The notes under the pieces were generated by a model. The model saw only the letters and a program-made list of their open reading frames with translations, was not told where the DNA came from and made no database searches. Position numbers and translations under genes: made by a program. This document shows positions 795 through 63,948 of a DNA stretch of 64,000 nt, piece by piece (position 1 is the stretch's first letter; each line of letters begins with the position of its first letter). The DNA comes from an uncultured Gammaproteobacteria bacterium (GTDB lineage Bacteria > Cyanobacteriota > Vampirovibrionia > LMEP-6097): the NCBI GenBank assembly GCA_964512985.1, contig CAZELI010000004.1, positions 17,782 to 81,781 of the forward strand, written 5' to 3'.

Positions 795-1118
795 ATGTTA
801 TTAGATAATGTCGAGGGCTTTGCGAAGCTATTTTTTTCATTGAATGTATATAGTTTAGAAACTATCAAGAAAGCTGCATATAAGTTTACTGATAAAGCTT
901 CATTCGATTTTATAACTGACAAAAAAGATACTATTGAAGTAAGAATAAATGCAATTGTTGATTTACCATCTATTGAGTTAGATCGCCTTGCTAAACAATT
1001 TAATAATGAGGTATTAGATCAGGATTTACGAGGAATTATTGCAAGTCAAACAGAGGCTACAAGGAATCTTATTTTAGCTCAAGCCTTCTCTAGAACTGAT
1101 CTATTGAATAATGAGTAA
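795..1118 (+). CDS. hxsD: His-Xaa-Ser system protein HxsD
   Basis: YSLETIKKAAYKF and FNNEVLDQDLR...TRNLILAQAFS motifs. Confidence 0.9.
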   Translation: MLLDNVEGFAKLFFSLNVYSLETIKKAAYKFTDKASFDFITDKKDTIEVRINAIVDLPSIELDRLAKQFNNEVLDQDLRGIIASQTEATRNLILAQAFSRTDLLNNE

Positions 1119-2601: not shown

Positions 2602-2604
2602 ATC

Positions 2605-5512: not shown

Positions 5513-5541
5513 TATGATGCCAATATTTCTTTCAAATAAAT

Positions 5542-6807: not shown

Positions 6808-6826
6808 GATTGACTCTGATGAGTAA

Positions 6827-7399
6827 TTAAAGGCGAGTTTCAAGTGAGTGACTATAAAGAGCCATACGTTCCTGAATAACGTAAGTAATCATATCTTTGA
6901 TCTGTTGATTAGCGCCAGTTATAAATACCTTACGGTCGAAATGCTCTTGACCAGCAGCAATTACAACTTTAGCTATGGCTTCATCACCAAAAATAGCAGT
7001 CATAATTTTTACACCTCTAAAACTTAATTTGGTAAGTATATTGTTTTTAATATTAGACTTAAGTCTTTCATTTAAAGGTTCTGCTTGGGATCTAGTTTCT
7101 AGAACTTTACCAAATCTATTTGCAACTATAATAGTCTCTTTGCCTGCTATGGGTTGATTGATGTCTTCATGCAATTCAATTTTGCTATCTAAAATTACCT
7201 GTGGATTTTTTACTGTTGGCTCAGCTAATTTTTGTTTCGAATTATTCTTTCTATCTATTTCATCTAGAAGCAAGAAAAATCTAAGTAGTCTATCTTGGTA
7301 TAGTCGTACTTCTTCCTCTGAAATATCACAACCATATACCTCATCGTAATAGGCTTTTAATTTGCTTTTAGTTGATCCTCTATTCATATAAATTTTCAA
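6827..7399 (-). CDS. Hypothetical protein with STAS-like (DUF4325-type) C-terminal domain
   Basis: FGKVLETRSQA...LSFRGVKIMTAIFGDEAI pattern. Confidence 0.55.
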   Translation of the reverse strand: MKIYMNRGSTKSKLKAYYDEVYGCDISEEEVRLYQDRLLRFFLLLDEIDRKNNSKQKLAEPTVKNPQVILDSKIELHEDINQPIAGKETIIVANRFGKVLETRSQAEPLNERLKSNIKNNILTKLSFRGVKIMTAIFGDEAIAKVVIAAGQEHFDRKVFITGANQQIKDMITYVIQERMALYSHSLETRL

Positions 7400-7424
7400 G
7401 AGTCATATTAATCTTTCCAATAAA

Positions 7425-10649: not shown

Positions 10650-10744
10650 ATTTAACTCCTTTTGTTAAGAGTTAATACGACGACATCAACGTCACCTGAA
10701 CTTTCGAGCTATTACTTAAAAGATGTCGGCTAACATTTAAAAGC

Positions 10745-10772
10745 AAAAAAAAGCACCTTGCGGCGCTCTTTT
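10745..10772 (-). terminator. Intrinsic terminator after tRNA-Lys
   Basis: GAGCGCC-GCAA-GGTGCTT followed by a T run on the - strand. Confidence 0.75.
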
Positions 10773-10783
10773 CTTTTATTAAA

Positions 10784-10860
10784 TGGTGCGTCCGGAAGGA
10801 TTTGAACCTTCGACCAATCGGTTAAAAGCCGAGTGCTCTACCAGGCTGAGCTACGGACGC
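10784..10860 (-). tRNA. tRNA-Lys(TTT)
   Basis: GCGTCCG/CGGACGC acceptor stem, anticodon loop CTTTTAA, GTTCAAATC T-loop, encoded CCA. Confidence 0.95.
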
Positions 10861-17900: not shown

Positions 17901-18046
17901 TAAAAATCCTTCAGACCAGGATGGGAAGGGGTTCCGCCGCTTCGCGGCGTTTGCGCTGCGCGCGGCGGAATGAAAGAAATTATTTAGCAGTCCGCAGGAC
18001 GAACCGCGCCGAAGGCGCGTAACCACAAGAAAAAATGAAATTTAGA
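17901..18046 (+). repeat. Palindromic repeat family B, copy 1
   Basis: GTTCCGCCGCTTCGCGGCG...GTCCGCAGGAC...GCGCCGAAGGCGC, shared with copies at 34094, 35537 and 27611. Confidence 0.9.
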
Positions 18047-23224: not shown

Positions 23225-24238
23225 ATGCGCATTGCTTTTATTGCTGATGAGATTACGACATTTATTAAAGACCATGATAGTACTTGGGCAATGATGCTGG
23301 CTGCGTTTGCGGCTAGGGATGAGGTGTTTTATGCGCATGCAGCTAGTCTTAAAGTTATAGCTAAGAATCCAGCTGCTGATTTTATTAAAATAGAGCAAGA
23401 GTTTTTTATACATCAAAGCATTTCTAAAATTAATTTATTAGAATTTCCAGGTAATAGAAGAGTTCCTAGCTCAATCAATCTTGATGAATTTGATCTGGTG
23501 TTTATGAGAAAGGATCCTCCAGTAGATATCAACTATCTCAATGCTTGTCAGATATTAATGCTCTGCAAGAAAGCTCTAGTAGTCAATGATCCAGGCAGCA
23601 TTATCAAGTTTAATGAAAAGCTTTCTACTTTAAATTTCCCTGAATTAACTCCTATAACTTTGGTTAGTAGAAGCCGTGAAGAGATTAAAGAGTTTCTTGC
23701 TAGGCATCAGAAGATCGTAATTAAGCCTATTGATCAGATGGGTGGTAGAGGAGTGTTTTCAATAGAGCTGGGTGATGAGAATGTAGATGCTTTGGTAAAT
23801 ACTGCAACTAATCAGGCTAATAATCTTGTAATAGTCCAAAAATACTTACCAGAAATCAAGACTGAAGGTGATAAGCGTATCATTATGATTAATGGTAAGG
23901 CGAGAGGAGCTATGTTAAGAATCCCTCCAGCACATGATTTCAGGGCTAACCTTGCTGCTGGTGGTTCTTATGCTGAATATGATTTAACTTCTAAGGATCT
24001 AGAGATCTGCGCCCAGCTAGAAAAATTCTTGGTGGATAATGGTATATATTTTGCTGGTATTGATTTAATAGGAACTAAGCTCACGGAGATCAATATTACC
24101 TCGCCAACGGGTTTGCATGAAATAAGCCGCACCCAAGGACTTGAGGGCGAGAATAAACTTGAAGCGATACTATTAAGAGAACTTAAGTCGCAATGTCATC
24201 CTGAGGGAGGGCGAAGCCCGACCGTAAGGATCCACTAA
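23225..24238 (+). CDS. gshB: Glutathione synthetase; C-terminal 14 aa supplied by repeat A
   Basis: DST, MRKDPP, NEKL, GDKRI, FRANLAAGG, EINITSPTG. Confidence 0.95.
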   Translation: MRIAFIADEITTFIKDHDSTWAMMLAAFAARDEVFYAHAASLKVIAKNPAADFIKIEQEFFIHQSISKINLLEFPGNRRVPSSINLDEFDLVFMRKDPPVDINYLNACQILMLCKKALVVNDPGSIIKFNEKLSTLNFPELTPITLVSRSREEIKEFLARHQKIVIKPIDQMGGRGVFSIELGDENVDALVNTATNQANNLVIVQKYLPEIKTEGDKRIIMINGKARGAMLRIPPAHDFRANLAAGGSYAEYDLTSKDLEICAQLEKFLVDNGIYFAGIDLIGTKLTEINITSPTGLHEISRTQGLEGENKLEAILLRELKSQCHPEGGRSPTVRIH

Positions 24239-24297
24239 ACAACAGTAGTTAATAGTGGATCCTTACGTCGCAACCTACGGTTGCTCCTCAGGATGAC
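24195..24297. repeat. Palindromic repeat family A, copy 1
   Basis: GTCATCCTGAG-hairpin-GTAAGGATCCACT...AGTGGATCCTTAC-hairpin-CTCAGGATGAC. Confidence 0.92.
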
Positions 24298-24317
24298 GAC
24301 TACATTTCACAATATTT

Positions 24318-27584: not shown

Positions 27585-27712
27585 AAAGTGTCCAGTAGAT
27601 CAATTTTTTATTAAATCCTGAATCGAGATGAGAGTGTTCTGCCGCGCCGAAGGCGCGGAACCACAATAAAAATGGAATTTTAGAAATAATTTTATAAAAA
27701 GTGTCCAGTAGA
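27580..27712 (+). repeat. Internally deleted repeat B copy flanked by a 20-bp direct repeat
   Basis: TATAAAAAGTGTCCAGTAGA at 27580-27599 and 27693-27712 around GCGCCGAAGGCGCGGAACC. Confidence 0.8.
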
Positions 27713-28931: not shown

Positions 28932-29008
28932 GAGTAATCATTTAAGAAAACGAGTACCCGTAATCCTTACAATTATGAGCATAGGCGTCAATTTAAGCGG
29001 AAAATCTC

Positions 29009-29113
29009 GTCATCCTGAGGAGGAGCCGAAGGCGACGACGTAAGGATCCACTACTACGAATAGTCTATTAGTAAGAGTGGATCCTTACGACCGCTTCGCG
29101 GTCTCAGGATGAC
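29009..29113. repeat. Repeat family A copy 2, nested inside an outer IR (28955-28966 / 29114-29125)
   Basis: Same arms as copy 1; outer TACCCGTAATCC / GGATTACGGGTA. Confidence 0.92.
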
Positions 29114-29131
29114 GGATTACGGGTATCGGTT

Positions 29132-30574
29132 TTAATTGAAGGCTGTTGAAACTGCTCTAAAATGCACCCTATTACCACCAAACAGATGCACTTCAGCACC
29201 TTTATCAGGCATGTCACAAGAGCATTGAATTATACTCCATTGCCCGGCTTGGCGTAATTGGATAATAAAATTATCCTCCGCAATATTATTTACGGTCTGG
29301 AAACTAAGTATAAGAAGATTAGCATAAGCATTCAAAAACTCTAGCGAAGTTTCTTTACCAGTGAATTTATAACAATCAAGTTTAAAAATATTTTTGATAA
29401 TGTCAAGTTCCAGCTTAGGATGATCGTAAATTAATACTGCTGTAGAGCCTTCTCTAAGTAGCTCACGGATTTCATTTATAGGCTTAGACCACTCTATCGC
29501 GCTTTCAATAATCTTGAGCATTTTAGAATTCTTATTGTTGATGTCATTGATTGGCATACCAGGCTTAGGCTGCCATTGATAACCATTAAGTAATTCTATG
29601 CTGCGATAATAAGCATCATAAAGTGCTTTATTGTTTTCGCGTGCTTGATCATTAAGATAGCGACTAGCCTGCAAAGCATCATCTAGATTGGTATTCCAGG
29701 TGACTAGGTTATTACCGGCTTCTATCATTCTCTTCGCCAGTTCTGGATAGCTACCATATTGAGCTAGGGCTTTCATGGTGATCTCATCACTGATAACTAA
29801 TCCTTTAAACCCTAAGCTCGTTCTTAATTCTTCTTGAATAAGCTTGGCTGAAATGCTTGCAGGTAATTCTTGAGAATCATAATCTGTCTTACTTATAAGA
29901 TGTGCTGACATCACTGACTCAGCGCCGCAGTCTATTGCAGCGATAAATGGTTTAAGGTGTTCAAGGTACTCGTTAAGAGTATAGTTCTGTACAGGCAACG
30001 CTAGATGTGAATCTATACTAGTATCACCATGACCAGGGAAATGTTTAACACAGGATTTAATACCATATTCTCTATAAGTTTGAATAATCACTTTAAGCTG
30101 CTCAGAGACTATATTAGGATCAGCTCCCAGGCTGCGGGTGCCAATAATAGGATTAAGTGGATTGGTAGAGAGGTCTGCACAAGGAGCTAAGACTAAGTTA
30201 AACCCAAGTTCAGCAATCTCATTAGCTAAGATACTACTATGGTCTATTAAAGGTTCACGAGCAAACAATAAGCCTTGCTCCCTTCCCATATTAATGCTGG
30301 CTCTGCCTAAGGCTTGCAAGCTGGGTAAGCTAGTATTAATCTTACGTAAGCGTTCCACCTTACCGCCTTCTTGATCGACGGTAATAATTAAATTATCACC
30401 AAGTAAATTCTTAAGTGAATTAATTAATTCTTGAACTTGTGCTTTAGATTCAATATTAGTATCATAGAAAATTACTCCAGCTGGATTAATCTCCCTAAGT
30501 TTCTCTTCTATATCTTTAGTAAGTTTAATCCCCTCAAAACCAATAACAAAGAGCTTTCCAAAGTTAGGGTCCAT
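29132..30574 (-). CDS. nagZ: GH3 beta-N-acetylhexosaminidase
   Basis: VDQEGG, KHFPGHG.T..DSH, ISDEITM. Confidence 0.9.
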   Translation of the reverse strand: MDPNFGKLFVIGFEGIKLTKDIEEKLREINPAGVIFYDTNIESKAQVQELINSLKNLLGDNLIITVDQEGGKVERLRKINTSLPSLQALGRASINMGREQGLLFAREPLIDHSSILANEIAELGFNLVLAPCADLSTNPLNPIIGTRSLGADPNIVSEQLKVIIQTYREYGIKSCVKHFPGHGDTSIDSHLALPVQNYTLNEYLEHLKPFIAAIDCGAESVMSAHLISKTDYDSQELPASISAKLIQEELRTSLGFKGLVISDEITMKALAQYGSYPELAKRMIEAGNNLVTWNTNLDDALQASRYLNDQARENNKALYDAYYRSIELLNGYQWQPKPGMPINDINNKNSKMLKIIESAIEWSKPINEIRELLREGSTAVLIYDHPKLELDIIKNIFKLDCYKFTGKETSLEFLNAYANLLILSFQTVNNIAEDNFIIQLRQAGQWSIIQCSCDMPDKGAEVHLFGGNRVHFRAVSTAFN

Positions 30575-34093: not shown

Positions 34094-34242
34094 TTCTAAA
34101 TCTCTTTTTATATTGTATGGTTCCGCGCCTTCGGCGCGGTTTGTCCTGCGGACGGCTAATTTTTATCTTCATTATAAGCCGCGCGCAGCGCAACCGCCGC
34201 GAAGCGGCGGAACCCATAATCTATCCTCGTTAGAGATTTTAA
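34094..34242 (-). repeat. Repeat family B copy 2, inverted
   Basis: Reverse complement of the 17901 and 35537 elements. Confidence 0.9.
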
Positions 34243-35536: not shown

Positions 35537-35672
35537 TAAAATCCTTCAAACCAGGTTGGGGTCAGTTCCGCCGCTGCGCGGCGGTTGCGCTGCGCGCGGC
35601 TTAATAAAGTTTATCAGCCGTCCGCAGGACAACCGCGCCGAAGGCGCGGAACCATAAATAATGAGATTTAGA
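35537..35672 (+). repeat. Repeat family B copy 3
   Basis: AAAATCCTTCAAACCAGG...GTCCGCAGGAC...GCGCCGAAGGCGC...GAGATTTAGA. Confidence 0.9.
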
Positions 35673-35744
35673 ATTAAAGTATTATTTGATAAGTATCTAA
35701 TTAATAATATTATGACCAACTTCAAGGGTATAATTTTAGTAACT

Positions 35745-36275
35745 ATGACATCAGAATCAATAGAAGAAGAAATGAAAATAATGACTGAGGATACTCTCAA
35801 TAGCGGTAATATAGCTGCTGGTATTGATATAGAAGATCCTATTAGAGTTCTTCAATTAGATCATGTGATTTCTGTTAAAACTGGCACATTACTTGCAGAC
35901 GTTGTTAAAACTTTAAATAGCAATCATATTGGTTGTGTAACTATAGTAGATAACTCTGGAGCTACAGTGGGTATTTTTACTGAGAGAGATATACTCAGAA
36001 AAATTATTGGTAAGAACTTAGATCTAAGTAAAGAAACAGTTGATACTTATATGACCCCTAATCCAGAAGTGCTTTCAGAAAACGATCCTATTGCATTTGC
36101 TCTGAATCGTATGTCTGGTGGTGGTTTTAGACATATACCTATCAGCAGAAATAACGAAGTGAAATTTATGCTTTCTATTAAAGACATCGTTGATCAAATT
36201 GCAATTACTTATCGTAAGAAAGTTCTGAACCTGCCGCCAGATCTGAAACAACAAACGTCGCAATATGGCGGATAG
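35745..36275 (+). CDS. CBS-domain protein
   Basis: GIFTERDIL, YMTPNPE, GFRHIPI. Confidence 0.9.
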   Translation: MTSESIEEEMKIMTEDTLNSGNIAAGIDIEDPIRVLQLDHVISVKTGTLLADVVKTLNSNHIGCVTIVDNSGATVGIFTERDILRKIIGKNLDLSKETVDTYMTPNPEVLSENDPIAFALNRMSGGGFRHIPISRNNEVKFMLSIKDIVDQIAITYRKKVLNLPPDLKQQTSQYGG

Positions 36276-36279
36276 TTTC

Positions 36280-36388
36280 GTCATCCTGAGGAGCAACCGT
36301 AGGTTGCGACGTAAGGATCCACTACTACGAATAGTCTATTAATAAGAGTGGATCCTTACGGTCGGGCTTCGCCCTCCCTCAGGATGAC
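36280..36388. repeat. Repeat family A copy 3
   Basis: Arms are those of copy 1 inverted; spacer nearly identical to copy 2. Confidence 0.92.
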
Positions 36389-36407
36389 GAATTTGATTGC
36401 TCGATTA

Positions 36408-38309: not shown

Positions 38310-38334
38310 AATATTAATTTTAGCGTAAATGCAC

Positions 38335-38447
38335 GTCATCCTGAGGAGCCTACGAAGTAGGCGACGTCAGGATCCACTTCTCATAAAGTTACTTTCAATA
38401 AATAGTGGATCCTTACGTCGCAACCTACGGTTGCTCCTCAGGATGAC
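38335..38447. repeat. Repeat family A copy 4, between divergent mutL and uvrB
   Basis: GTCATCCTGAG...CTCAGGATGAC. Confidence 0.92.
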
Positions 38448-38482
38448 GGGATTTGAATACTCTGCTTGCTATAATTTCTATA

Positions 38483-45129: not shown

Positions 45130-45285
45130 TTAAGGAGACCGATACCCGTTGCTGTCATTGCGAGGAGCGCGCAGCGCGACGAAGCAATCCACTCTACGGC
45201 GAGTATGATTATGGCTTTAGAGTGGATTGCTTCGCTCCACTTCGTTCCGCTCGCAATGACGGATTACGGGTATCGGTTCCCTTAA
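45130..45285. repeat. Repeat family A variant (45154-45260) inside an outer IR shell
   Basis: GTCATTGCGAG...GCAATCCACT / AGTGGATTGC...CTCGCAATGAC; flanks ACCGATACCCGT / ACGGGTATCGGT. Confidence 0.9.
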
Positions 45286-45312: not shown

Positions 45313-46722
45313 TTACTTGTGTGACATTATCCTTGGTTCTGGCTTATTTCTTTCCTGAAATTCTGTAACCCTCGAGCTTAGATTTTGCCAATTCTTTTCA
45401 GTAAAAGGCATATCATTAACTAATTCCTCAAGAGCAATAGAAATATTAGTAAGCGAGTTTTCTTCTACTATCTTAATAGGAAGCTTCTTGCTTTCCGATA
45501 TTTTGAAGATTTTGGCATCGGGTTGTGAATAGCTTTTAAGTGCAAATATTATATCTGCTTCGTCTAAACTATTAACTACCCTAAGGTCCATTTCTGATAC
45601 AGAAGCAAAGGCTCTTTTTAGTAGAGACTTGCTAATAGCATATGGATAAATAGCAATCGCTTTACCATCTTTACTGAAAGGAATACCAGCAAACGCTTCT
45701 TTCTCGGTTTCGCTAGCTCTCTCAAGTATAGTAACTTCATCTGTTTCTTTATCACGTTTCCTGAGTTCAGGATGTATAGGATGTTCGTTAAGAATAGAAT
45801 CCACGCTTGCTGCTACATTCTTATGAACATTCACAGTGTACTTATCAATGATCTCCACGCAAATATCAAAAGTAGGCTTAGAAGCTCTTTCTAAGATAGA
45901 TTTGCGAGTGCCGCGTTTCTTAGCTTCTTCGTCACCGAGAGTTACAGTTTCAATACCACCAACTAAATCACTTAAGGTTGGATTCTGAATAACGTTCTCA
46001 ATACTAATACCATGAGCAGTAGCTACTAGATTGACACCACGCTCAGCAATAGTTCTTGCGGCTTCTGCCTCTTCCTTAGTACCTATCTCATCGATAACTA
46101 TGACTTCTGGCGTATGATTCTCTACTGCTTCAATCATAACGTCGTGTTGTTTCTTGTCGAATGGTAATTGCATGCGACGTGATCTACCAATAGCAGGGTG
46201 AGGTATATCACCATCACCAGCGATCTCATTAGATGTATCAATAACGACGACTCTTTGTTCTCTTTGAGTAGAAAGGAAATGAGCAATCTCTCTAAGCATA
46301 GTAGTTTTACCTACACCTGGGGGACCTAATAATAGAACGGATTTGTTTTGTTCTAAATAGTCCTTGATAATTTCAATGGTTCCAAAAATAGATCTACCAA
46401 TTCTCATGGTGAGTCCAATGATTTCATTAGATTTATTTTTTACACAGCTAATTCTATGAAGTGTGCCTTCTAAACCAGCTCTATTGGAATAATCGAAACT
46501 ACCAACTTGTTTTACTATCGCTTCGATAGTTGCTCTAGTTGCACTTTGGTCTCCTAATATTATGGTTTTATTTTTTGCGAATCTGGCTTCGGGGATTCTC
46601 CCTACATCGACTACGATTTCTATTAATCTTGATAAATCATGTTCTTTGATTGTTTTCTGGAAGTTTGACGGTAAAAGTTGAATAATCTCGTACGCGTCAT
46701 CATTTCTAATGTCTACCATCAA
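45313..46722 (-). CDS. Ycf45/SpoIIIAA-family AAA ATPase
   Basis: TLHRIS, GPPGVGKTT, DTSNEIAGDGDIPHP, EAVENHTPE, ATAHG. Confidence 0.92.
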   Translation of the reverse strand: MMVDIRNDDAYEIIQLLPSNFQKTIKEHDLSRLIEIVVDVGRIPEARFAKNKTIILGDQSATRATIEAIVKQVGSFDYSNRAGLEGTLHRISCVKNKSNEIIGLTMRIGRSIFGTIEIIKDYLEQNKSVLLLGPPGVGKTTMLREIAHFLSTQREQRVVVIDTSNEIAGDGDIPHPAIGRSRRMQLPFDKKQHDVMIEAVENHTPEVIVIDEIGTKEEAEAARTIAERGVNLVATAHGISIENVIQNPTLSDLVGGIETVTLGDEEAKKRGTRKSILERASKPTFDICVEIIDKYTVNVHKNVAASVDSILNEHPIHPELRKRDKETDEVTILERASETEKEAFAGIPFSKDGKAIAIYPYAISKSLLKRAFASVSEMDLRVVNSLDEADIIFALKSYSQPDAKIFKISESKKLPIKIVEENSLTNISIALEELVNDMPFTEKNWQNLSSRVTEFQERNKPEPRIMSHK

Positions 46723-46752
46723 TGTGAGGGTTCTCCTTTTTTTGTTCTGCCG

Positions 46753-46876
46753 AAACTTGTTCCAAAATCGTCCATAACTGTGTTACGCTCGTCCCTCGCC
46801 ATCCTCATTTACGCCCAGTAAACTGCGGTGGCTCGGGACTCGCAAGCCTTGTTCTGAACGATTTTGAAACAAGTTT
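46753..46876 (-). repeat. RPE-like structured element family C, intergenic copy
   Basis: 22-bp terminal IR; core GCGAGTCCCGAG...GAGGGACGAGC.TAAC shared with the coding copies. Confidence 0.85.
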
Positions 46877-47097
46877 AATGAAAATGATTTAAGAAATTTT
46901 TCTTTTGATTTAATATTTAATTTGATAATTTTACGGTGAGCTATCATCTCTTAGTAATATTCTACCTCTAGTTTTCTAAATTGTAACTAATATCAGATCC
47001 ACATCATCTAGTCCAAAAGGTTTAAATAACGCCAAAATTAGGTTCTTCCACCTAACTCAGATAAAATTTAATTATGCTAAAAAATTGTTCCGCAGAA

Positions 47098-49705: not shown

Positions 49706-50896
49706 ATGGCAGTGAATAATTGGGCTAAGGTTTATTTTCAAGACAGTTTTGCTGGTATCTTAGAGCAAAGACCAGGGGGTGATTATTTATTTAGTTACGA
49801 CGAAGAGTTTCAAAAGAAACAAATATCAATTTCAGCTCAACTGCCTATAAGTAAAAAGGAACACCTTAACAAAAATAACTTGCATCCATTTTTTGATAAC
49901 TTGGTTGCAGAGGGTTCCTTAGCAAAAATACAAGCAAAGTCAATCGGAGCGAACGAAACTGATCGTTTTAAATTATTAATAGCCTTTGGTTCTGATTTAA
50001 TCGGTGCCGTAACAATCGTTGACCCTAATCCTAATTACGAAATAAAAATTGATCCAGAAGATTATTTACAAGAACTTAGCTTACGTTCTAAAGCTTCGAT
50101 ATCTGGTGTTCAGCCAAAACTACTTGCAGTGAAGAAAGGAGCTGATTTCTATCCAGCTAATTACCAAGAAGCTTCTACCCATATCGCAAAATTGCCAGGG
50201 CAGTTTCCATTAATAGTTGAGAATGAATTTTTAACGATGAAAGCAACAGAGATACTTTTATTTAATGACAAAGTTGCTGAAGTTGAAATAGCGGAACTTA
50301 AAGGATTAGGACAGGCACTCTTGGTAAAAAGATTTGATAGAAGAGAAAATGGAGAAAAATTACATTTTGAAGAGTTTACTCAGCTACTAAATGAAATATC
50401 TGATGATAAATATTTTGGCAGTTATAAGGATATGGCTGATTATATTAGTAAGAGTCGCTTATGTGATGAACGTGAGATAGAAAAACTACTTAGAAGAGTA
50501 CTGGCTTGTATTTTATTTGGTAACACTGATGCGCATATGAAAAACTTTGCTATGTTTCGCCAAAGAGATGCTCTGAATCTTACACCAATTTACGATATGG
50601 TTTTTGTAAGATATTACAAGGATCTTGCTAATGAAATGGCTTTAGATTTCGTTCCAAAATTGAAGCCAAGGATTCAAGAGCTAAAACCAAAGCATCTTAA
50701 GATTTTAGCTGAAGAAGGTTTTGGCTTTAACGAGAAAGTACTTTGGAATATAAAAAACGATTTTGAGAAGCGCTTAAATTTAATTTATGAATTCATAGAA
50801 GCTGAAACGCAGATCGATTCACACTTAAGAGAAAAATTTAAGGAGCATATAGAAAAAAGATGGAACGGATTATTCAAAAATATTGGTCAAAAGTAG
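49706..50896 (+). CDS. hipA: HipA family kinase toxin with N-terminal couple_hipA domain
   Basis: LHPFFDNLVAEG, SISGVQPKL, LVKRFDR, GNTDAHMKNF, LTPIYD. Confidence 0.93.
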   Translation: MAVNNWAKVYFQDSFAGILEQRPGGDYLFSYDEEFQKKQISISAQLPISKKEHLNKNNLHPFFDNLVAEGSLAKIQAKSIGANETDRFKLLIAFGSDLIGAVTIVDPNPNYEIKIDPEDYLQELSLRSKASISGVQPKLLAVKKGADFYPANYQEASTHIAKLPGQFPLIVENEFLTMKATEILLFNDKVAEVEIAELKGLGQALLVKRFDRRENGEKLHFEEFTQLLNEISDDKYFGSYKDMADYISKSRLCDEREIEKLLRRVLACILFGNTDAHMKNFAMFRQRDALNLTPIYDMVFVRYYKDLANEMALDFVPKLKPRIQELKPKHLKILAEEGFGFNEKVLWNIKNDFEKRLNLIYEFIEAETQIDSHLREKFKEHIEKRWNGLFKNIGQK

Positions 50897-51381
50897 TAGC
50901 TAAAGTTAAAGCTAAAAGAAAAGCGAAAGATCTAACTCAAAGCAATCTTTCCGCAATAGCTGGAATAAGTTTTCAGACAATTTCAAGATTTGAACAAGCG
51001 GACGAGAATATTCAACTTTCTACTGCGCTTGGGATCTGTGATAGCTTAGGTTTACGTCTAGATATTCAAGAATCATATTCTTTTCGTTTAATGATTTTTA
51101 AAATGCTTGTTGATGGAGTAAAAAAAGATCCTTATTTTTTTTCTGCTATGCTTCATAATGCAGATCCAGGGCATCCAGTGTATTTATTTGGTTCTAAGAA
51201 TGAAAAATATTCTTTTCCAGAGGATGATAATGAGAACAAAAATCCTGTCTTTCAATTTATGAAAAGTATTTCAGAAGATATGCTAGAATATGGGGATCTT
51301 TGGGAAAAATATCCTCCTATACAAACCTGGCAAGAGTTTTGCGAGTTAATATATTCAAGTTATAAGAATAGATTCAATTAG
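50860..51381 (+). CDS. XRE/HipB-like HTH antitoxin with an extra C-terminal domain
   Basis: RKAKDLTQSNLSAIAGISFQTISRFE; overlaps the hipA end. Confidence 0.8.
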   Translation: MERIIQKYWSKVVAKVKAKRKAKDLTQSNLSAIAGISFQTISRFEQADENIQLSTALGICDSLGLRLDIQESYSFRLMIFKMLVDGVKKDPYFFSAMLHNADPGHPVYLFGSKNEKYSFPEDDNENKNPVFQFMKSISEDMLEYGDLWEKYPPIQTWQEFCELIYSSYKNRFN

Positions 51382-53411: not shown

Positions 53412-55043
53412 ATGTCGTCCAAGAAGGCTTTACTATATTCAATTCTAATCAGCTTAGCGATTGCTTTAGTGGTCGAACATCGAGTATTTTACGATCTTAC
53501 TGCTATTAATGATGACGTGCGTAATCAAATCTACTGGATGGCAAGATTCATAGATCCAAATTACTTCTCTAATGATTACGTTGCTTCCTACTTCACTCAA
53601 TCCAGCATGATCTCTCCGCTATTAAGTTGGATTTATCAATTCTTCAGTCAGTGGGTTGACCCAAAAGTAATTACTCAGTTCTTACCTTTCCCGATTATTA
53701 TACTTACGACGATATTTTTGTTTAAAGCAACGGAGATTCACGGAAGATCTCAGATCCTATTCACAAAGCTCCCAGATGCGAGGCATGCGAGTCCCGAGAA
53801 CGCGGAGTTGACTGATACGTCAATGAGCAGTTCGAGGGACGAGCATAACAAAGCAGATGGGACTTTGTGGACAGGATCTAAGTATGCGTTGTGGGTTTGC
53901 TATGTCTTTAATTTATACATCTGGACTATGAAATATACGGCAGGAGGTTTACCAAGATCCTTCTTTTATTTATTGTTCTTTCTTTTCTTATGGATATTTG
54001 CTGCTAAGCGCTGGAAGTGGCTCATACCCTGCTTTATACTACAAGCCTTGATATATCCTACAGCTTTCTTTATATCTCTTATGACTTTAATCGTTGAAAT
54101 GGTTTGGACAAAGCTTCAGCAAATCAAATCTAGTAAAAGACAAACCTTCTTTACATTGATAGCACTTGCTGCAGGTATATTTGTACTTTATTTACGTTAT
54201 ATAGTAGACCATACCCCTAATGCATTTGGGCGCATGACTAGTCTTAAAGAGGCTATTAAGATGCCAGAATTTTACATAGATGGACGAGCTTGTGTATTTA
54301 TTGTGCCATTTAATTTCAACTTATCCTTTAAGTACTTTCCATGTATATTAGTTTGTCTATTAGTGATTTGGGGAGCATATTATTTACTTAAAAAACTTAT
54401 CAGTAAACGAGTATCAATAGTTACTATACCAAGATATATTTGGAGCAGTAGTATTGCTTCCATCATACTGCTGGTCATAGCATACTTAGTTTTATTCTAT
54501 TTATACTTGCCGCATAGATATATCGCTTATATTCTTCCACTAATACCTATATTCTTACTGGGATCAATACTATACGACATTGACCTTGCTTTACCTAAAA
54601 GACCTATCGCGGTTTGGTTAATTACTCTTCTTGCTTTATTACTTATTGCGCCTCACTGGAATGATGATCTAATTGAAGTATCCGCCCCTGAACAAAAACT
54701 ACATCAATTCTTGAAAACCATTCCTAGTGACGCTTTGATAGCAGCACCATTAAAGCTTGCAAGTAATATTCCAGCATTCTCCTATCGTAGTGTGTTAGTT
54801 AGTTCCGAAACTAATATCCCCTTTCATGTAGATTATTACAAGGAAATTAAAGCCGATACTAAAGCAATAGATCTAATTTATAACTCAAATGATCCTATAG
54901 AAATAACCAAGATTATTAATCAATATGGCATTGACTATGTTGTATTGGATCTTAAATCAAATGGTGACAGTATCTTGCCAAGTATTCCAAGTAATAAAGT
55001 AATTTATTCTACTAAAAGATTTATAGTAATAAAGGCAAAGTAG
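53412..55043 (+). CDS. Polytopic membrane protein (GT-C-like) carrying an in-frame family C insertion
   Basis: NDD motif after TM1; many TMs; C-terminal YGIDYVV. Confidence 0.75.
   Translation: MSSKKALLYSILISLAIALVVEHRVFYDLTAINDDVRNQIYWMARFIDPNYFSNDYVASYFTQSSMISPLLSWIYQFFSQWVDPKVITQFLPFPIIILTTIFLFKATEIHGRSQILFTKLPDARHASPENAELTDTSMSSSRDEHNKADGTLWTGSKYALWVCYVFNLYIWTMKYTAGGLPRSFFYLLFFLFLWIFAAKRWKWLIPCFILQALIYPTAFFISLMTLIVEMVWTKLQQIKSSKRQTFFTLIALAAGIFVLYLRYIVDHTPNAFGRMTSLKEAIKMPEFYIDGRACVFIVPFNFNLSFKYFPCILVCLLVIWGAYYLLKKLISKRVSIVTIPRYIWSSSIASIILLVIAYLVLFYLYLPHRYIAYILPLIPIFLLGSILYDIDLALPKRPIAVWLITLLALLLIAPHWNDDLIEVSAPEQKLHQFLKTIPSDALIAAPLKLASNIPAFSYRSVLVSSETNIPFHVDYYKEIKADTKAIDLIYNSNDPIEITKIINQYGIDYVVLDLKSNGDSILPSIPSNKVIYSTKRFIVIKAK
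53752..53879 (+). repeat. RPE-like family C element, in frame in a CDS
   Basis: Terminal IR AGATCCTATTCACAAAG / CTTTGTGGACAGGATCT; encodes KLPDARHASPENAELTDTSMSSSRDEHNKADGT. Confidence 0.92.
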
Positions 55044-55048
55044 AGTTG

Positions 55049-55537
55049 TTATTCTCGAAGCTTTAAAATTTCATAGCTGACACTTGCAACACCAGCTCTT
55101 AAGAAATCCAAAACTTTAGCTGCTGCTTCAGAAACATCAATCTCTCTACCTTGAATAAAAGGACCTCTGTCATTGACCCTCACTATTACTTGTTTACCAT
55201 TCGTTTTATTAGTAACAAGAACATGAGTCCCAATTGGGAGAGTTTTATGTGCCGCTGATAAACCATTAGAGTCAAAGATCTCATTAGCGGCAGTTTTTCT
55301 ACCATCGAACTTTCCGCCATACCAGCTTGCTTTAGTTTCAAAAATTTCTTCAGAATGCTCAAGCTTCATCTTCTTGATTTTTTTATCAATATTAATTTCG
55401 TCATCTTCATCTAGATACTCTTCAATAGTATTAGTAACTTCATCTTCAGCTTGAACTGATAAGTTTAAATTGAACAAACAAAAAATCAGAGAACCTATCA
55501 AGCATGCTTTAATAAATTCTCTGATTTTCTTTGACAT
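55049..55537 (-). CDS. rlpA: Septal ring lytic transglycosylase RlpA family
   Basis: ASWYG, AAHKTLP, VRVNDRGPF, IDVS. Confidence 0.93.
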   Translation of the reverse strand: MSKKIREFIKACLIGSLIFCLFNLNLSVQAEDEVTNTIEEYLDEDDEINIDKKIKKMKLEHSEEIFETKASWYGGKFDGRKTAANEIFDSNGLSAAHKTLPIGTHVLVTNKTNGKQVIVRVNDRGPFIQGREIDVSEAAAKVLDFLRAGVASVSYEILKLRE

Positions 55538-55547
55538 AGTTCTGTAA

Positions 55548-55619
55548 TTATTTCTTTTTAGATGCCTTAGGCTTTTTCTTGCTACCTTTGTCTTTGCCTT
55601 TGTCTTGACTTTTTCCCAT
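55548..55619 (-). CDS. 23-aa Lys-rich micropeptide, not in ORF track
   Basis: AAAGGAG RBS; MGKSQDKGKDKGSKKKPKASKKK*. Confidence 0.6.
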   Translation of the reverse strand: MGKSQDKGKDKGSKKKPKASKKK

Positions 55620-55741
55620 TATATATTCTCCTTTGATTAAATTACCACATTGATAATTTTATACTAATTTTAGCGTAGCATGAATTTCTTGGATGTGTAA
55701 CCACTCACTATTAAGCACATAAGAGATCACCACGTCGTGCC

Positions 55742-55865
55742 GTCATCCTGAGACCGCGAAGCGGTCGTAAGGATCCACTATTCATGAGGTTTCTTAGTAG
55801 TGGATCCTTATCCTGACGCTACGCTCAGGACAGGCTTGCAACCTTCGGCTCCTCCTCAGGATGAC
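55742..55865. repeat. Repeat family A copy 5 with an inserted mini-hairpin
   Basis: Arms are those of copy 2 inverted; TCCTGACGCTACGCTCAGGA inserted in the right arm. Confidence 0.88.
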
Positions 55866-55951
55866 GAACTTTTCGACTTAAGTTAACCAATATGCTCATG
55901 ATTGTATGGCAAAAAACATGCTAATCTGAGACTAAATATTCGTCTATTGTA

Positions 55952-57016
55952 ATGATAATTAAAGTACTAAAATCAATATCATCTTTAAAGTTAACTGTTC
56001 TATGTATATTCTTGCTTGGGGTTTTAATATTCTGGGGTACTCTTGATCAAATCGAGCATGGGCTCTATTTAGCGCAGGAACGTTTTTTTAATTCCTTATT
56101 TGTTTTTCTTGGTCCAATACCTATCCCTAGTGTAAGAATCATTATCTGGGTGTTATTTTTTAATTTATTAGCTGCACTTGGTTTTAGATTTAGATATAGC
56201 TTGAATAATATTGGATTGGTGATAACGCATGTTGGGCTTGTAATGCTCTTGGTGAGTGGGTTTCTGACACTTCATTTTAGTCAAGAGTACTCTATGAATT
56301 TGTATGAGGGAGAGTCAAGTAATATAGCTGCTGATTGTATGAATTGGGAATTAGTAATAATTCAAGAAGATAAGGGACGGATTAGTAAGGTAAGTATCGA
56401 TGAGCAGGACTTAATTCCAGGTAAACCCATTACAGTAAATGGTTTAGCATTACCTCTACAGCTTAAGTCTAAATATATAAATTCGCACTATTTTGATACT
56501 CCTTATGCAGGCAGGATCCTAAAAGAAATGCCCTTAGAAAAAGACTATGAGAAGAATGTACGAGCATTAATTCTGGATTGGAATGAGGATGAGGTTAAAT
56601 TACAAGGTGATGATGAGCCTAGTTATGGTTTACATTATCAGGATATAGATTATGTTTTATTACTCAGGAGAAAACAATATAAGTTACCTTTTATGATTGA
56701 ACTTGTAGATGTTAGTAGAGAATTGCATCCTGGCACCGATAAGGCTAAAGCTTATCAAAGTAAGGTTATTATTCATGAAACTGGTCTTACTCGTGAACTT
56801 ACTATCTCTATGAATAAACCTTTTCGTTCTGGCTTGTATACTGCTTATCAAGCGTCCTTTGGAGTGGATGCTGATGATAAGGAGATGACGGTGCTCGCTG
56901 TAGTTAAGAATCTTAATTATACTTTGCCTTATATTGCTAGTTTGATTTGTTCACTAGGTTTGTTTTGGCATTTTGGTCAAATGTTCTTGGTTAATGTGAG
57001 GAAACGTGATGAATAA
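55952..57016 (+). CDS. Cytochrome c biogenesis ResB/CcsB-like protein
   Basis: SSLKLTV, ITHVGL, HPGT....YQS, ISMNKPFR..YQASF. Confidence 0.85.
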   Translation: MIIKVLKSISSLKLTVLCIFLLGVLIFWGTLDQIEHGLYLAQERFFNSLFVFLGPIPIPSVRIIIWVLFFNLLAALGFRFRYSLNNIGLVITHVGLVMLLVSGFLTLHFSQEYSMNLYEGESSNIAADCMNWELVIIQEDKGRISKVSIDEQDLIPGKPITVNGLALPLQLKSKYINSHYFDTPYAGRILKEMPLEKDYEKNVRALILDWNEDEVKLQGDDEPSYGLHYQDIDYVLLLRRKQYKLPFMIELVDVSRELHPGTDKAKAYQSKVIIHETGLTRELTISMNKPFRSGLYTAYQASFGVDADDKEMTVLAVVKNLNYTLPYIASLICSLGLFWHFGQMFLVNVRKRDE

Positions 57017-59018
57017 AATTAAAATGTTGAAGTGGATTGCTTGCTTCGCATTCCTCGCAATGACGATTAACAATGCTAGTGCTGCTACTAAATCATTGAA
57101 CTTGAATGAGTTCAAAAAAATCATTATCGTAGAACAAGGGCGACTCAAGCCCCTAGATACTTATGCAAGAAATCTTGCGCTTAAGTTCTCTGGTAGATCT
57201 AAGGTCAATGGTAAGGAAGCTATTTATTGGTTTGCTGAATTGCTGTTTAAACCAGAGAAGACATATGATACTAAGGTATTTCTTATTAATAATCCCGAAG
57301 TACTAGAGGCTATCGGTATAGAGCCTGATAAACATAGGCGCTATAGCTTTAAGGAATTGGAGCCTGGGATTGAGAAGCTACATAAATATGCTGCTAGCGC
57401 TTTAGAGAAAGAAGAGGCTGATAGAACTCCGATAGAGAAAGAGTTTTTGCGAGTATTTAATAATTTCCATAATTATATTCAGTTAATTAACAGTTTACAG
57501 TTTAATGCTAAGCATAGTGACTTTGGTGTGGAGAATGAGGAGACGCGGACTCGCTTGTCACTAAAATACAATGGGAATAGTTTATTCCAGATTATTCAGA
57601 AATCTGAGCAGTTAGAGTTATTGATGTCTCAGTTTAGCTCTAGATCTGAGAACCAGCTCAGGGGGAGTGATAGAGATATAGTGAGATTAGCTTTTAATTT
57701 ATATCGCTGGATTGAGAATCATCGTTCATATACAAGTGCTTTTGGGTTAGAAGATAAGCTTGCGATTATTCCAGTCCAAGCTGAAGATGCTTCTTTAGAA
57801 TGGATATCTCCTTGGGAGCTTTTACTTAGACCTGAGGTGACTTATAAACAAGAGTTATTTGATTTGAATATAATGTATAAGGCTTATAATGCTGCTAATC
57901 AAGAGGCTTTTAATAAGATAGTTAGTGATTTTAGGCTAAATATTAGTAAGAAATTACTAAAGTATAATATCGCAGCACCCAAAATTAATACAGAAATCTT
58001 TTATAATAATCTCAACCCGTTTGGGAATGCAAAATTCCTATATGGATTTGCGTTCTTATTAAGTATGATTGCTAGTTTGGTTTGGACTAGATATTCCAAT
58101 CTAGCTGCTTTAGTTTTACTTGTAAGTGGCTTCTTAATTCATACTATAGGAATAATATCTAGGATAATAATATTATCCAAGCCACCAGTCACTAATCTGT
58201 TTGAGACGTTTATTTTTGTTTCTTGGATAGTTGTTTTATTGGGCTTGATTATTTATTTACTTGATCGCAAATCTAATCTAGGATTGATATTAGCAAGCTT
58301 CTCTGGTCTTGTTCTCTTGCTTATCTCCGGCAAGTTTGCTGCAGATGGTGATACTATGCAAGTGCTTATTGCAGTACTTAATTCTAATTTCTGGCTTTCA
58401 ACGCATGTGATCTGCGTTACTATTGGTTATGCGGGTGTCTTTGCTGCGGGTATAGTTGGACATATATATCTTATTCAAAAAATTACCTTAATATTAACGA
58501 GGAGCCTATCCGAAAAGCTCCCAGATGCAAGGCATGCGAGTTCCGAGAACGCGGAGTTGACTGATATGTCAATGAGCAGTTCGAGGAACGAGCATAACAC
58601 AGCAGATGGGACTTTTCGGATAGGCTCGATTCTTGGAATATTAGGTTTTGGCCTATGTTTTAGTTTCCTAGGAACCATGCTCGGTGGTATTTGGGCTGAT
58701 CAAAGTTGGGGACGTTTCTGGGGTTGGGATCCTAAGGAGAATGGGGCCTTATTAATTGTATTGTGGTCAGTGATTATATTCCATGCAAGAATGGCAGGGC
58801 TAATTAAAGAGACTGGTATCGCGATAGCGAGTGTCTTTGGTTGTGTAGTAGTTATGACTTCTTGGTTTGGTATTAATTTACTTGGAGTAGGTTTACACTC
58901 CTATGGCTTTACTCAAGGTGTAGCACTCTGGTTATATAGTTTCTATGCTTTTGAATTAGTTTTTATACTGGTGAGTATTTTTATTCTATCGCGCTTTAAG
59001 TCCAAGGTCGTTAGCTAG
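57006..59018 (+). CDS. ccsA: Cytochrome c biogenesis protein CcsA (system II), carrying a family C insertion
   Basis: GRLKPLDT, PPVTNLFE, WLSTHV, WWD motif GGIWADQSWGRFWGWDPKE, GLHSYG. Confidence 0.93.
   Translation: MMNKIKMLKWIACFAFLAMTINNASAATKSLNLNEFKKIIIVEQGRLKPLDTYARNLALKFSGRSKVNGKEAIYWFAELLFKPEKTYDTKVFLINNPEVLEAIGIEPDKHRRYSFKELEPGIEKLHKYAASALEKEEADRTPIEKEFLRVFNNFHNYIQLINSLQFNAKHSDFGVENEETRTRLSLKYNGNSLFQIIQKSEQLELLMSQFSSRSENQLRGSDRDIVRLAFNLYRWIENHRSYTSAFGLEDKLAIIPVQAEDASLEWISPWELLLRPEVTYKQELFDLNIMYKAYNAANQEAFNKIVSDFRLNISKKLLKYNIAAPKINTEIFYNNLNPFGNAKFLYGFAFLLSMIASLVWTRYSNLAALVLLVSGFLIHTIGIISRIIILSKPPVTNLFETFIFVSWIVVLLGLIIYLLDRKSNLGLILASFSGLVLLLISGKFAADGDTMQVLIAVLNSNFWLSTHVICVTIGYAGVFAAGIVGHIYLIQKITLILTRSLSEKLPDARHASSENAELTDMSMSSSRNEHNTADGTFRIGSILGILGFGLCFSFLGTMLGGIWADQSWGRFWGWDPKENGALLIVLWSVIIFHARMAGLIKETGIAIASVFGCVVVMTSWFGINLLGVGLHSYGFTQGVALWLYSFYAFELVFILVSIFILSRFKSKVVS
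58502..58627 (+). repeat. RPE-like family C element, in frame in ccsA
   Basis: Terminal IR GAGCCTATCCGAAAAG / CTTTTCGGATAGGCTC; encodes KLPDARHASSENAELTDMSMSSSRNEHNTADGT. Confidence 0.92.
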
Positions 59019-61960: not shown

Positions 61961-62938
61961 CTAAAAATTAACTATTTGCTTACTCGGCTCATACCCAAGC
62001 TTCTCTTGCATAGCCTGAATCATAGGTTCTATTCTTGCAAGTAATTCAGCGTTTTTCTTCCATTTATCAGGATTAGGTTTGGTGTTAGTAGAAACTACAG
62101 GAAGGTCTTCGGCTTGTTTCTGAATCTCTCCAGCATAAGGTATATCTATAAACATACAAAGTTCACGAATATGTTTCTCAGGATTAGCTATGAGATCTTC
62201 ATATCTAACTTGCATTACTCTCTTAGGATCGAGCTTGGAGAAAGACTCCTGAGCATACTTGTGTGCTGATAACCACTGAAACGCACAAACTTCTTCTAGG
62301 CTCTTACCTGTTAGATAGTCTTCCCAACCTGGAGGGTTCGTGAACTTCCAAACCTTACCGTTATAACCTTTAATATTAAGGCGTTTATTATAATCCCAGA
62401 ACTTACGGAAGCTGAAATTGAAACGTTTCTCAGAGCGCCATCCCTCAATCAGAGAGCTGATATTAGTCTTACCTTCTCTTACTATATAGATGAACTTCGC
62501 ATCGGGATAGGCTTTGGCAAGATACGAAACTCGATAAGTATTAGGTGGAGTCTTGTCTAGTATTCTATATTGATTCACCCAAAGCGATTTAATAGGCTTA
62601 ACAATGATCTCAGAGAACGCTTCATGTAAGGGTTTGAGCTGAGCTTTTAAGCTGTTGTTTAAAAATACATAGCGAATAAGATCCGCGCAGAATTTATTAT
62701 TAAAGGTGAATTTATGATATTGATTATCGAGGTATTTTTTATCTTCTTCCTTATAATCAGCTTCACCCATATACATGGAGAATATCCAATCACGCGGATC
62801 TGGTAGGAATTTTTCCCAGAGGTAATGGGACTCTCTGTATGATGCCCAGAGTTCAGGACTACTGCCCAATATGGTAGAGAGCAGTGTAGTACCAGACCGC
62901 GGGCAACCAATGATAAAAATAGGATCTTTAATTTGCAT
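61961..62938 (-). CDS. Sulfotransferase
   Basis: PIFIIGCPRSGTT, DKTP, VRYEDL. Confidence 0.92.
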   Translation of the reverse strand: MQIKDPIFIIGCPRSGTTLLSTILGSSPELWASYRESHYLWEKFLPDPRDWIFSMYMGEADYKEEDKKYLDNQYHKFTFNNKFCADLIRYVFLNNSLKAQLKPLHEAFSEIIVKPIKSLWVNQYRILDKTPPNTYRVSYLAKAYPDAKFIYIVREGKTNISSLIEGWRSEKRFNFSFRKFWDYNKRLNIKGYNGKVWKFTNPPGWEDYLTGKSLEEVCAFQWLSAHKYAQESFSKLDPKRVMQVRYEDLIANPEKHIRELCMFIDIPYAGEIQKQAEDLPVVSTNTKPNPDKWKKNAELLARIEPMIQAMQEKLGYEPSKQIVNF

Positions 62939-62943
62939 ATATT

Positions 62944-63948
62944 TTAATTTATCACATGAAAAACTACTCTCACGAATTTACGCCAGCTTATGAGTAAGTA
63001 TTCGCCAGCGATTTTTAGTTTTTGAGGAGGGGTTAGTTTAGTCTCTGGTACTGAATAAGCGAGTTCTAGGAGGGGTCTTCTGAGAACATAATTAAGGATA
63101 GCTTGATCATCTTTACTAAGTTCTTTAGACCAAGCACCAATTCTGCTAGAGTCTAGATCTTGTCTGGATTTGTGTTTCCATGAGCTTTCCCATGGTGAGA
63201 ATATTTCTACATCAGATTGAGATTCTTGGAGAATTTTAGGTTCAAACTTCTCGCCAATAAACTCGCAAATTTGTTTTAGACTAAGAGTTGGTTCATTGAG
63301 TAATTCTTCGTACTTGATGGTTAGTAAATTATCAGGAAGATCACCAGCTTGTTTTCTTAGATCCTGACCGAGTTTGATGTATTGAATCCAGAATCTTGCA
63401 TTGTTAACTAAACCATCTGGTCTCCAAGGCATTTTCAGGAGAGAGTTAACAGTATCTCTACCATCTCTGATTAAATGAATAAACTTAGCTTGAGGATAGA
63501 GTTTTAAAATTTCTTGAACGTTATAAAGATGCTGAGGAGTTTTTTCACAGAAACGAGTTTTGTGTCTTTTCTCTAGCAGGCTGTTCATGAGAAGATCAAA
63601 AACCTGCTTTTTATAAAAGTCATCTGGATCTAAATTAGATTGTGTTTTATCAGTAGTATTTTCTATGAATTTTTGTATTAGAGTTTCTTCTTCAGCTTTA
63701 ATTAGGCTAGTGAAGTCATTGATTCTTGATTCTTCTAGTAAGCGTTTAAAAGTATTAAGATCAAAATGCTTCCAGTCGTAATTGTTCTTAGAGACAAAAT
63801 TAAAGAAATGAGTTTCAGTAGCTGAAGCAATCTTCGAGTGACGATTAAGAATTGACGCAAGGACAGTGGTGCCAGAACGCGGGCAACCAACGATAAATAT
63901 AGGGTTTTCACATTTAATTTGAGTCTTAACCATATCCCTATTAGTCAT
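62944..63948 (-). CDS. Sulfotransferase
   Basis: PIFIVGCPRSGTT, EKTP, RDGRD, IKYEEL. Confidence 0.93.
   Translation of the reverse strand: MTNRDMVKTQIKCENPIFIVGCPRSGTTVLASILNRHSKIASATETHFFNFVSKNNYDWKHFDLNTFKRLLEESRINDFTSLIKAEEETLIQKFIENTTDKTQSNLDPDDFYKKQVFDLLMNSLLEKRHKTRFCEKTPQHLYNVQEILKLYPQAKFIHLIRDGRDTVNSLLKMPWRPDGLVNNARFWIQYIKLGQDLRKQAGDLPDNLLTIKYEELLNEPTLSLKQICEFIGEKFEPKILQESQSDVEIFSPWESSWKHKSRQDLDSSRIGAWSKELSKDDQAILNYVLRRPLLELAYSVPETKLTPPQKLKIAGEYLLISWRKFVRVVFHVIN

Follow-up and report, generated by a model that had tools for sequence, protein, structure and literature searches.

The 64,000-nucleotide stretch of contig CAZELI010000004.1 analysed here (the window) contains three copies of a palindromic element of about 126 nt, and two of these copies lie in frame inside the genes of unrelated membrane proteins, i.e., CcsA and a protein that we label GT-C-like. 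It is well supported that this element represents a new family of palindromic repeats that resembles the Rickettsia palindromic elements (RPEs), is unrelated to them in sequence as judged by peptide and hidden Markov model (HMM) searches, and occurs in a lineage new for this kind of repeat. The segment is an insertion and not a conserved protein domain, and the feature that is preserved among its copies is the hairpin, not the peptide. The copies present in the window are the following:

53753..53878, + strand: copy A, 126-nt palindromic element, in frame in the gene of a GT-C-like membrane protein; encodes (Q)ILFTKLPDARHASPENAELTDTSMSSSRDEHNKADGTLWTGS
58502..58627, + strand: copy B, 126-nt palindromic element, in frame in the gene of CcsA; encodes SLSEKLPDARHASSENAELTDMSMSSSRNEHNTADGTFRIGS
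~46745..46884, - strand: copy C, a diverged member of ~140 nt, intergenic, with the same hairpin architecture as copies A and B

The palindrome and its hairpin

Copies A and B are identical at 113 of 126 positions (blastn E 1e-44); a 22-nt core that they share is present just two times in the window, and none was seen in 100 shuffles. The codon phase is the same in both genes, base 1 of the unit being codon position 3, and therefore the peptides ILFTKLPDARHASPENAELTDTSMSSSRDEHNKADGTLWTGS and SLSEKLPDARHASSENAELTDMSMSSSRNEHNTADGTFRIGS are co-linear. The sequence-only reading that preceded this work had described one element in the same frame and on the same strand of two membrane-protein genes; this was confirmed, the unit of copy A lying one base inside the limits given there (53752-53879) at each end, and translation yielded the near-identical peptides of copies A and B as they had been quoted. 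The G+C content of the 126-nt units is 51.6%, and that of the window 36.3%. Copy C shares 77% identity with the element over 73 nt (blastn) and is located between two minus-strand genes, with one end ~30 nt upstream of the start of the open reading frame (ORF) 45313-46722. It scores 135 bits with a covariance model built from copies A, B and C; when this model was run over the whole window with filters off no fourth member was found, and other long hairpins scored at most 24.5 bits.

Copies A and B each form a single long hairpin, with 45-46 pairs and a shared pattern of small internal loops. The fold energies are -69.2 kcal/mol for copy A and -73.5 kcal/mol for copy B (z -8.96 and -10.89, respectively), and none of 200 shuffles was as good; copy C reaches -59.7 kcal/mol (z -7.9) and shows the same loop pattern as the other two. 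Thirteen positions differ between copies A and B. Eight of these represent four pairs that changed on both sides and are all still paired, and the rest comprise one U-G to C-G change, one change that closes an A-C mismatch and three unpaired positions. When 13 changes were placed at random 100,000 times, four or more pairs changed on both sides were obtained 10 times (P about 1e-4). The three compensatory examples named in the sequence-only reading (the GATCC/GGATC, CACAAAG/CTTTGTG and GTCCC/GGGAC series) are real. With copy C aligned to the other two, compensatory changes are seen in one or more copies at 15 of the 46 consensus pairs, and the internal loops together with one G-U pair are invariant in all three DNA copies.

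The coding changes between copies A and B are 11 non-synonymous versus two synonymous, over ~101 and 28 sites, a ratio near 1; as far as these two sequences tell, the inserted peptide appears to be under no selection. The compensatory pairs, together with the fact that 11 of the 13 changes are non-synonymous, indicate that the palindrome is preserved rather than the peptide, and the earlier proposal of a constraint on the nucleic-acid fold was thus upheld. Three of the six frames of the element are open, while copy C is closed in five of six. Of the open frames, the one read in the hosts has the most hydrophilic product, with grand average of hydropathy (GRAVY) values of -0.86 and -0.97 versus +0.81 and -0.45 for the other open frames.

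Insertion sites and host genes

The two genes of the window that carry the element are:

53412..55043, + strand: host gene 1, encoding a 543-aa polytopic membrane protein (P0001) with an invariant NDDV motif and a modelled fold that resembles those of GT-C glycosyltransferases
57006..59018, + strand: host gene 2, encoding CcsA (P0002), 670 aa; PF01578, E 3.9e-22

The sites occupied by copies A and B are empty in most of the relatives that were aligned, i.e., 14 of the 40 homologs found for host 1 and 15 of the 120 listed homologs of CcsA. Among the former, 12 of the 14 show a clean gap of 43 columns, located between E.H and AG[SP]KY, and only P0001 and its ortholog P0123 have the insert. Among the latter the insert is absent from 12 of the 15 and two retain in-frame remnants of it. 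The remnant of P0004 consists of RSLSEKLPDARHA followed by ILGIL, where KLPDARHA is joined to ILG, and that of P0007 reads SLFKKLPDAR joined to IGS. These remnants are in-frame internal deletions of the element; with DNA like that of copy B, the junctions of both would fall at direct repeats of 2-3 nt.

The two 45-aa peptides were combined into a profile, with which the longer proteins of a collection of 5.8 billion clusters were searched; among the 143 candidates there were 12 insert-bearing proteins from 11 families:

P0001 and P0123 (host 1 ortholog): GT-C-like family
P0002: CcsA
P0124: ComF-like phosphoribosyltransferase
P0125: PurM
P0126: GH3/NagZ enzyme
P0127: SufS
P0128: CCA-adding or poly(A) polymerase-family enzyme
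P0129: M3 oligopeptidase
P0130: flavin disulfide oxidoreductase
P0131: IleRS
P0132: CobT-like protein, with the 3' half only

Judging from these proteins, at least nine further unrelated genes of related uncultured bacteria appear to carry the element, besides the two hosts of the window. P0132 keeps the 3' half of the element as an in-frame remnant. The 11 full copies of the peptide have a mean pairwise identity of 76% over 43 residues, with 23 of the 43 columns invariant. None of the 11 has a closed frame, not even that of P0131, which is the most diverged. A peptide query detects one frame only, and it is for this reason that all the copies were found in one frame. At peptide positions 15 (P/S/F) and 30 (D/N) the first bases of the codons pair with each other; 10 of the 11 copies are Watson-Crick-compatible there and one is wobble-compatible, a pairing read from the amino acids that may reflect one ancestral double change. 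The unit is preceded by SQ or Q in 5 of the 11 full copies and followed by K, E or Q in 7, which suggests that it is often a few bases longer, and therefore its true ends are uncertain by up to ~9 nt. A candidate direct repeat, GATCT, flanks copy A at 53746-53750 and 53875-53879, the right one overlapping the end of the palindrome, with a spacing of 129 nt that equals a net insertion of 43 codons; copy B has nothing comparable. P0005 (CcsA, empty) and P0124 (filled) have the same listed length of longest contig, 291,080 bases, and are possibly encoded on one contig, which suggests that different genomes fill different sites.

Several of these other families also reveal the insertion. The window itself contains an empty site:

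~29237..29251, - strand: empty site in the NagZ-like gene (ORF 29132-30574), at residues RQAGQW (within LRQAGQW), where P0126 is filled

The BLASTP alignment of this NagZ-like protein with P0126 has 393 identities over 544 positions and a 41-residue gap exactly at the insert. Residues 216-257 of PurM P0125 form an unmatched stretch at residue 219 of the solved structure 3m84; in SufS P0127, residues 110-172 stand against residues 122-125 of 6c9e, and in IleRS P0131, the stretch 393-461 has its place between residues 359 and 360 of 8c9e, the unmatched stretch exceeding the element in these last two. The ortholog alignment proposed by the sequence-only reading to define empty sites has therefore been done, and with clean gaps in 12 of 14 and 12 of 15 sequences, a domain conserved in all orthologs is not what was found.

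The identification of the second host as CcsA, already made from the sequence only, was borne out by the PF01578 match, and the GT-C-like label of host 1 has moderate support. Host 1 matched no family in Pfam or NCBIfam, and near the N-terminus its family shares the invariant motif AINDDV.NQIYW; comparison of the P0001 model with DPY19, STT3, AftA, PglB and ArnT gave a best E of 2.7e-4 and five matches at E<=0.001, which are weak, with template modelling (TM) scores of 0.25-0.45. Copy B encodes a loop that precedes the helix leading into the WGxFWGWDPKEN (WWD) segment of CcsA, and in the comparison with solved CcsA/CcsBA this loop is left unaligned, with matched segments on either side. In the topology of CcsA-type proteins the WWD segment faces outward, and from this topology the insert would be in a cytoplasmic loop. 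AlphaFold models based on small ortholog alignments had a mean predicted local distance difference test (pLDDT) of 70.7 for P0001 and 78.0 for P0002. In the P0001 insert (protein residues 121-150) the pLDDT is 44-46, between helices at 91-92, and residues 504-533 of P0002 have a pLDDT <50 and were modelled as coil between two long helices; over both models the inserts score 43-47. The insert is absent from the alignment and a low pLDDT is expected anyway; hence, these values show a tolerated loop position and are not proof of disorder. The insert would form an extra, probably disordered loop of ~42 residues. The nearest named homologs of both hosts come from Cyanobacteria, Melainabacteria and Caenarcaniphilales metagenome-assembled genomes (MAGs), with 43-51% identity, and the closest relatives reach 67-81%; the window also includes cyanobacteria-type genes (LdpA-like, DUF3326). 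From these homologs and genes, the host lineage is likely Melainabacteria-like.

The two sites of the window differ in their history. In the CcsA tree the five close relatives form one clade (Shimodaira-Hasegawa-like approximate likelihood ratio test, SH-aLRT, 87) and a single origin at the site is not rejected by the approximately unbiased (AU) test (p-AU 0.19); this site is thus compatible with one old insertion that was then partially or completely lost. In the GT-C-like tree, P0123 groups with the empty P0134 and P0136 (support 100/100) and the nearest relative of P0001 is the empty P0133, a non-sister grouping that was suspected from the alignment before the tree was built. A tree constrained to unite P0001 with P0123 is worse by 122.6 log-likelihood units (p-AU 1.4e-6). 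The inserts of these two proteins are identical at 39 of 43 residues and mutually the closest of the 11 copies, in hosts that are 67% identical, and the flanks of the inserts follow the host tree. The GT-C-like site requires either a strong nucleotide constraint together with at least two scarless losses, or more than one entry at the same site. Since the same site is filled in two non-sister lineages, each with a closer empty relative, a homing-like process was considered, i.e., site-specific insertion and/or scarless excision of a strongly constrained nucleotide sequence, in place of a passive MITE (a transposable element of the miniature inverted-repeat type). This process is judged possible, on balance unlikely; if true, it implies an unrecognised form of mobilisation that enters and leaves essential genes without damage.

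Relation to known repeats and the proposed mechanism

The closest resemblance of the element is to the RPEs, which are described as ~105-146 nt long (PMC3184786) or ~150 bp long (PMC10969869), as divided into several families and as often inserted in frame in metabolic genes that are unrelated to one another (PMC10969869, PMC3184786). Both are palindromic, multicopy and of similar size, the element having 126 nt, 45-46 pairs and three copies in the window; both are inserted in frame in many unrelated housekeeping genes, where they add a conserved peptide absent from orthologs; both coexist with other palindromic families in the genome (PMC10969869); and for neither has an associated transposase been recognised. 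The difference resides in the hosts, a Melainabacteria-like lineage versus the Rickettsiales. The peptide in its three open frames had no match in NCBIfam and no relevant match in Pfam (E<=10), a comparison made at the level of peptides and HMMs. NCBIfam presumably includes the TIGRFAM models of RPE domains. Of what the sequence-only reading had said about a third copy, its existence was verified at ~46745-46884, in an intergenic region; its proposed resemblance to the RPE-1 core found no support, the peptide of the element in its three open frames having no NCBIfam and no relevant Pfam match at E<=10. The suggestion of an RPE-like, protein-invading element in a distant phylum gained support from the empty sites, the 11 host families and the conservation of pairing despite changes in the peptide.

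The element has the anatomy of a MITE in that the whole 126-nt unit is an inverted repeat too small to hold a gene, and it shares with MITEs the character of a small, non-autonomous inverted-repeat element. Some MITEs are reported to produce in-frame fusions or internal insertions, such as Coxiella QMITE1/2, pneumococcal BOX/RUP/SPRITE, Bordetella BRE and the Anabaena MITEs (PMC5896051, PMC3184786, PMC10969869). However, most copies of those elements lie between genes or lengthen the ends of genes, and it is exceptional for one to be inserted in frame within a core enzyme, whereas here two of the three window copies lie within genes, one peptide search yielded 11 host families, and no parent insertion sequence (IS) was found in the 64-kb window. 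Hairpin-forming doublets of REP (repetitive extragenic palindromic) sequences, or REPINs, are likewise long hairpins of two inverted arms and a spacer; PMC3116915 describes compensatory hairpin changes as common and proposes a single-stranded hairpin as the mobilised form. In contrast, REPINs are extragenic, shorter, contain a conserved 16-mer and lie beside a gene for a REP-associated tyrosine transposase (RAYT), and two of the three copies here are intragenic; no conserved GTAG or CGTC tag was present at the ends of copies A and B. Searches with Rfam gave no match over the element, neither at E<=1 (40000-64000) nor at gathering thresholds (whole window). [quoted passage not shown] Comparison of the element with plasmid and phage collections by blastn gave no match, and no published description was found of an element of this kind from Melainabacteria or from non-photosynthetic cyanobacteria.

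We consider it probable that the element belongs to a selfish, MITE-like family of full palindromes of ~126 nt (possibly up to ~140 nt), translated as a loop and moved by a putative mobiliser. The repeat, its hairpin, the compensatory changes, the empty sites, the many unrelated hosts and the in-frame remnants were observed; that a trans-acting enzyme moves the element, that it is translated, that the loop is disordered and that the element is selfish is what we infer. The element would spread, or would once have spread, through Melainabacteria-like genomes by means of a trans-acting enzyme encoded outside the window, and it would land both between and inside genes. Inside a gene it would survive only with its one strongly hydrophilic open frame in phase and at a tolerant loop site, and would then be transcribed and translated with its host as an extra loop of ~42 residues. 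The hairpin could be maintained by recognition of the single-stranded fold (DNA or RNA) during mobilisation, or by arms that correct each other, and copies would decay by in-frame deletions inside the palindrome.

Several observations weigh against this proposal of a selfish, mobile palindrome. The pattern of P0001 and P0123 is not predicted by a simple neutral insertion that is vertically inherited. The DNA is known for three copies and the other 10 are peptides obtained with a one-frame query, so a bias of orientation or frame is not measurable. No target-site duplication is definable from two copies, and no transposase, Y1, RAYT or IS was seen among the scanned ORFs of the 64-kb window; the sole recombinase seen in the window is a tyrosine integrase adjoining tRNA-Lys. 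With the 45-aa peptide as query, phmmer gave no match at E<=0.001 among 1.84 billion cluster representatives, and an exact-pattern scan for the conserved stem core in 185,579 species genomes gave no true copy; from these two results the element is either rare or limited to a clade that is small and has been sampled poorly. The four loci returned by the pattern scan (one in a Halobacteriales archaeon, two in Aquihabitans and one in Limnocylindria) belong to unrelated G+C-rich genomes and were rejected; ~1-6 chance matches had been estimated.

The degree of conservation could also be explained if the host had co-opted the hairpin as an RNA (or DNA) signal, be it a translational pause that aids folding or membrane insertion, an RNase or stability element, or a protein-binding site, in which case selection at the level of the host would act on both sequence and fold. 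The element is indeed more conserved than a neutral insert, as indicated by the P0001 and P0123 inserts (39/43, versus 67% for the hosts), by the 13-residue remnant of P0004, which is identical to P0002, and by the invariance of the internal loops and the G-U pair. In the three copies, moreover, the transcribed strand has the more stable fold of the two, by 5-12 kcal/mol; however, three copies are too few, the counts of G-U pairs do not explain the asymmetry, and this bias was dropped as evidence. Co-option is nevertheless improbable, given that most orthologs lack the element, that its hosts are functionally unrelated and include soluble and membrane proteins, and that it decays by deletion. 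A different kind of selection would operate if the peptide were a module for binding, targeting or degradation and the palindrome were incidental to it. The conservation of its central part (23 of 43 columns invariant, 76% mean pairwise identity) and the recovery of all copies in one frame would agree with such a module, but the one-frame outcome was built into the peptide query, the 11 non-synonymous versus two synonymous changes give a ratio near 1 per site, and the amino-acid changes track base pairing. In addition, copy C is intergenic with five of its six frames closed, the peptide belongs to no Pfam or NCBIfam family, and its pLDDT is <50; a selected peptide is for these reasons highly improbable.

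It had also been left open, from the sequence, that the element might be removed at the RNA level, as an intron or a processed intervening sequence, leaving proteins without the peptide. A very stable hairpin that joins both ends would be recognisable by a processing enzyme; nevertheless, neither E<=1 nor gathering thresholds brought up an Rfam intron or other family, 11 of 11 full copies including P0131 have kept an open frame, and P0004, P0007 and P0132, which have lost one arm, are still in frame. If the hairpin were cut and not religated, essential genes would lose their mRNA, and to our knowledge there is no bacterial enzyme that excises and religates an mRNA hairpin of this kind, which was counted against RNA removal; this reading now has a very slim chance of being correct. 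The chance that the segment is an assembly or chimera artefact, or an ordinary conserved domain, is negligible, in view of the clean gaps of the orthologs, the three diverged copies of the window and the 10 further non-identical copies from NCBI, ENA and JGI.

Repeat background and implications

Other families of ~130-nt intergenic palindromes make the window a repeat-rich background, in parallel to the several families of RPEs (PMC10969869). A second family of ~130 nt, also intergenic, is formed by the following loci:

24200-24298, 28997-29122, 36268-36399 and 38326-38456: members of the second palindrome family
55763-55866: partial member
45140-45275: variant

These repeats have outer arms CGTCATCCTGAGGAG and CTCCTCAGGATGACG, two small G+C-rich side hairpins and a central stem formed by CGTAAGGATCCACT and AGTGGATCCTTACG (z -6 to -10). 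Their CGTC and GACG ends recall the CGTC-tagged repeats of the REP/REPIN type; no RAYT gene was seen in the window. A third family, intergenic and very G+C-rich, is found at 17931-18046, 27642-27684, 34115-34215 and 35565-35675, with the motif GGTTCCGCGCC-TTCG-GCGCGG and its counterpart CCGCCGCGAAGCGGCGGAACC in a sequence of 36% G+C. P0126 has, at residues ~235-262, a second insertion of 28 residues (KLEAAHYALDQDSIEDPKELGLKEMQVK) that is absent from the window ORF 29132-30574 and unrelated to the element, and may come from another repeat family.

Other features of the window are:

55952-57016: ResB-like gene, upstream of the CcsA host gene
1111-3765, + strand: genes of the His-Xaa-Ser system for the radical SAM maturases HxsB (E 2e-190) and HxsC (E 1e-125)
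458-784 and 795-1118: small ORFs of no assigned family just upstream of HxsB/HxsC that could be other Hxs components
9534-10860, - strand: tyrosine recombinase gene adjoining tRNA-Lys(ttt), followed by four family-less ORFs (4616-9062); may be an integrated element
49706-51381, + strand: ORF with a HipA N-terminal domain that overlaps the downstream HTH_3 regulator ORF by 37 nt, apparently a toxin-antitoxin-like pair
61961-63948, - strand: two tandem sulfotransferase paralogs, whose 43-nt repeat (62886-62928 and 63866-63908, 84%) is most simply a trace of gene duplication

In-frame palindromic invasion of core enzymes has been regarded until now as essentially a peculiarity of Rickettsia, and a 2024 review of MITEs considers such invasion in other prokaryotes merely "conceivable" (PMC10969869). 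A family that is independent and sequence-unrelated and shows the same behaviour points to convergent evolution. It also offers a second system for the study of how these elements move, why a hairpin is kept in coding sequence, and how IleRS, PurM, SufS and CcsA tolerate a loop of 42 residues. Inserts of this kind will pass for lineage-specific domains in the annotation of MAGs and in structure prediction.

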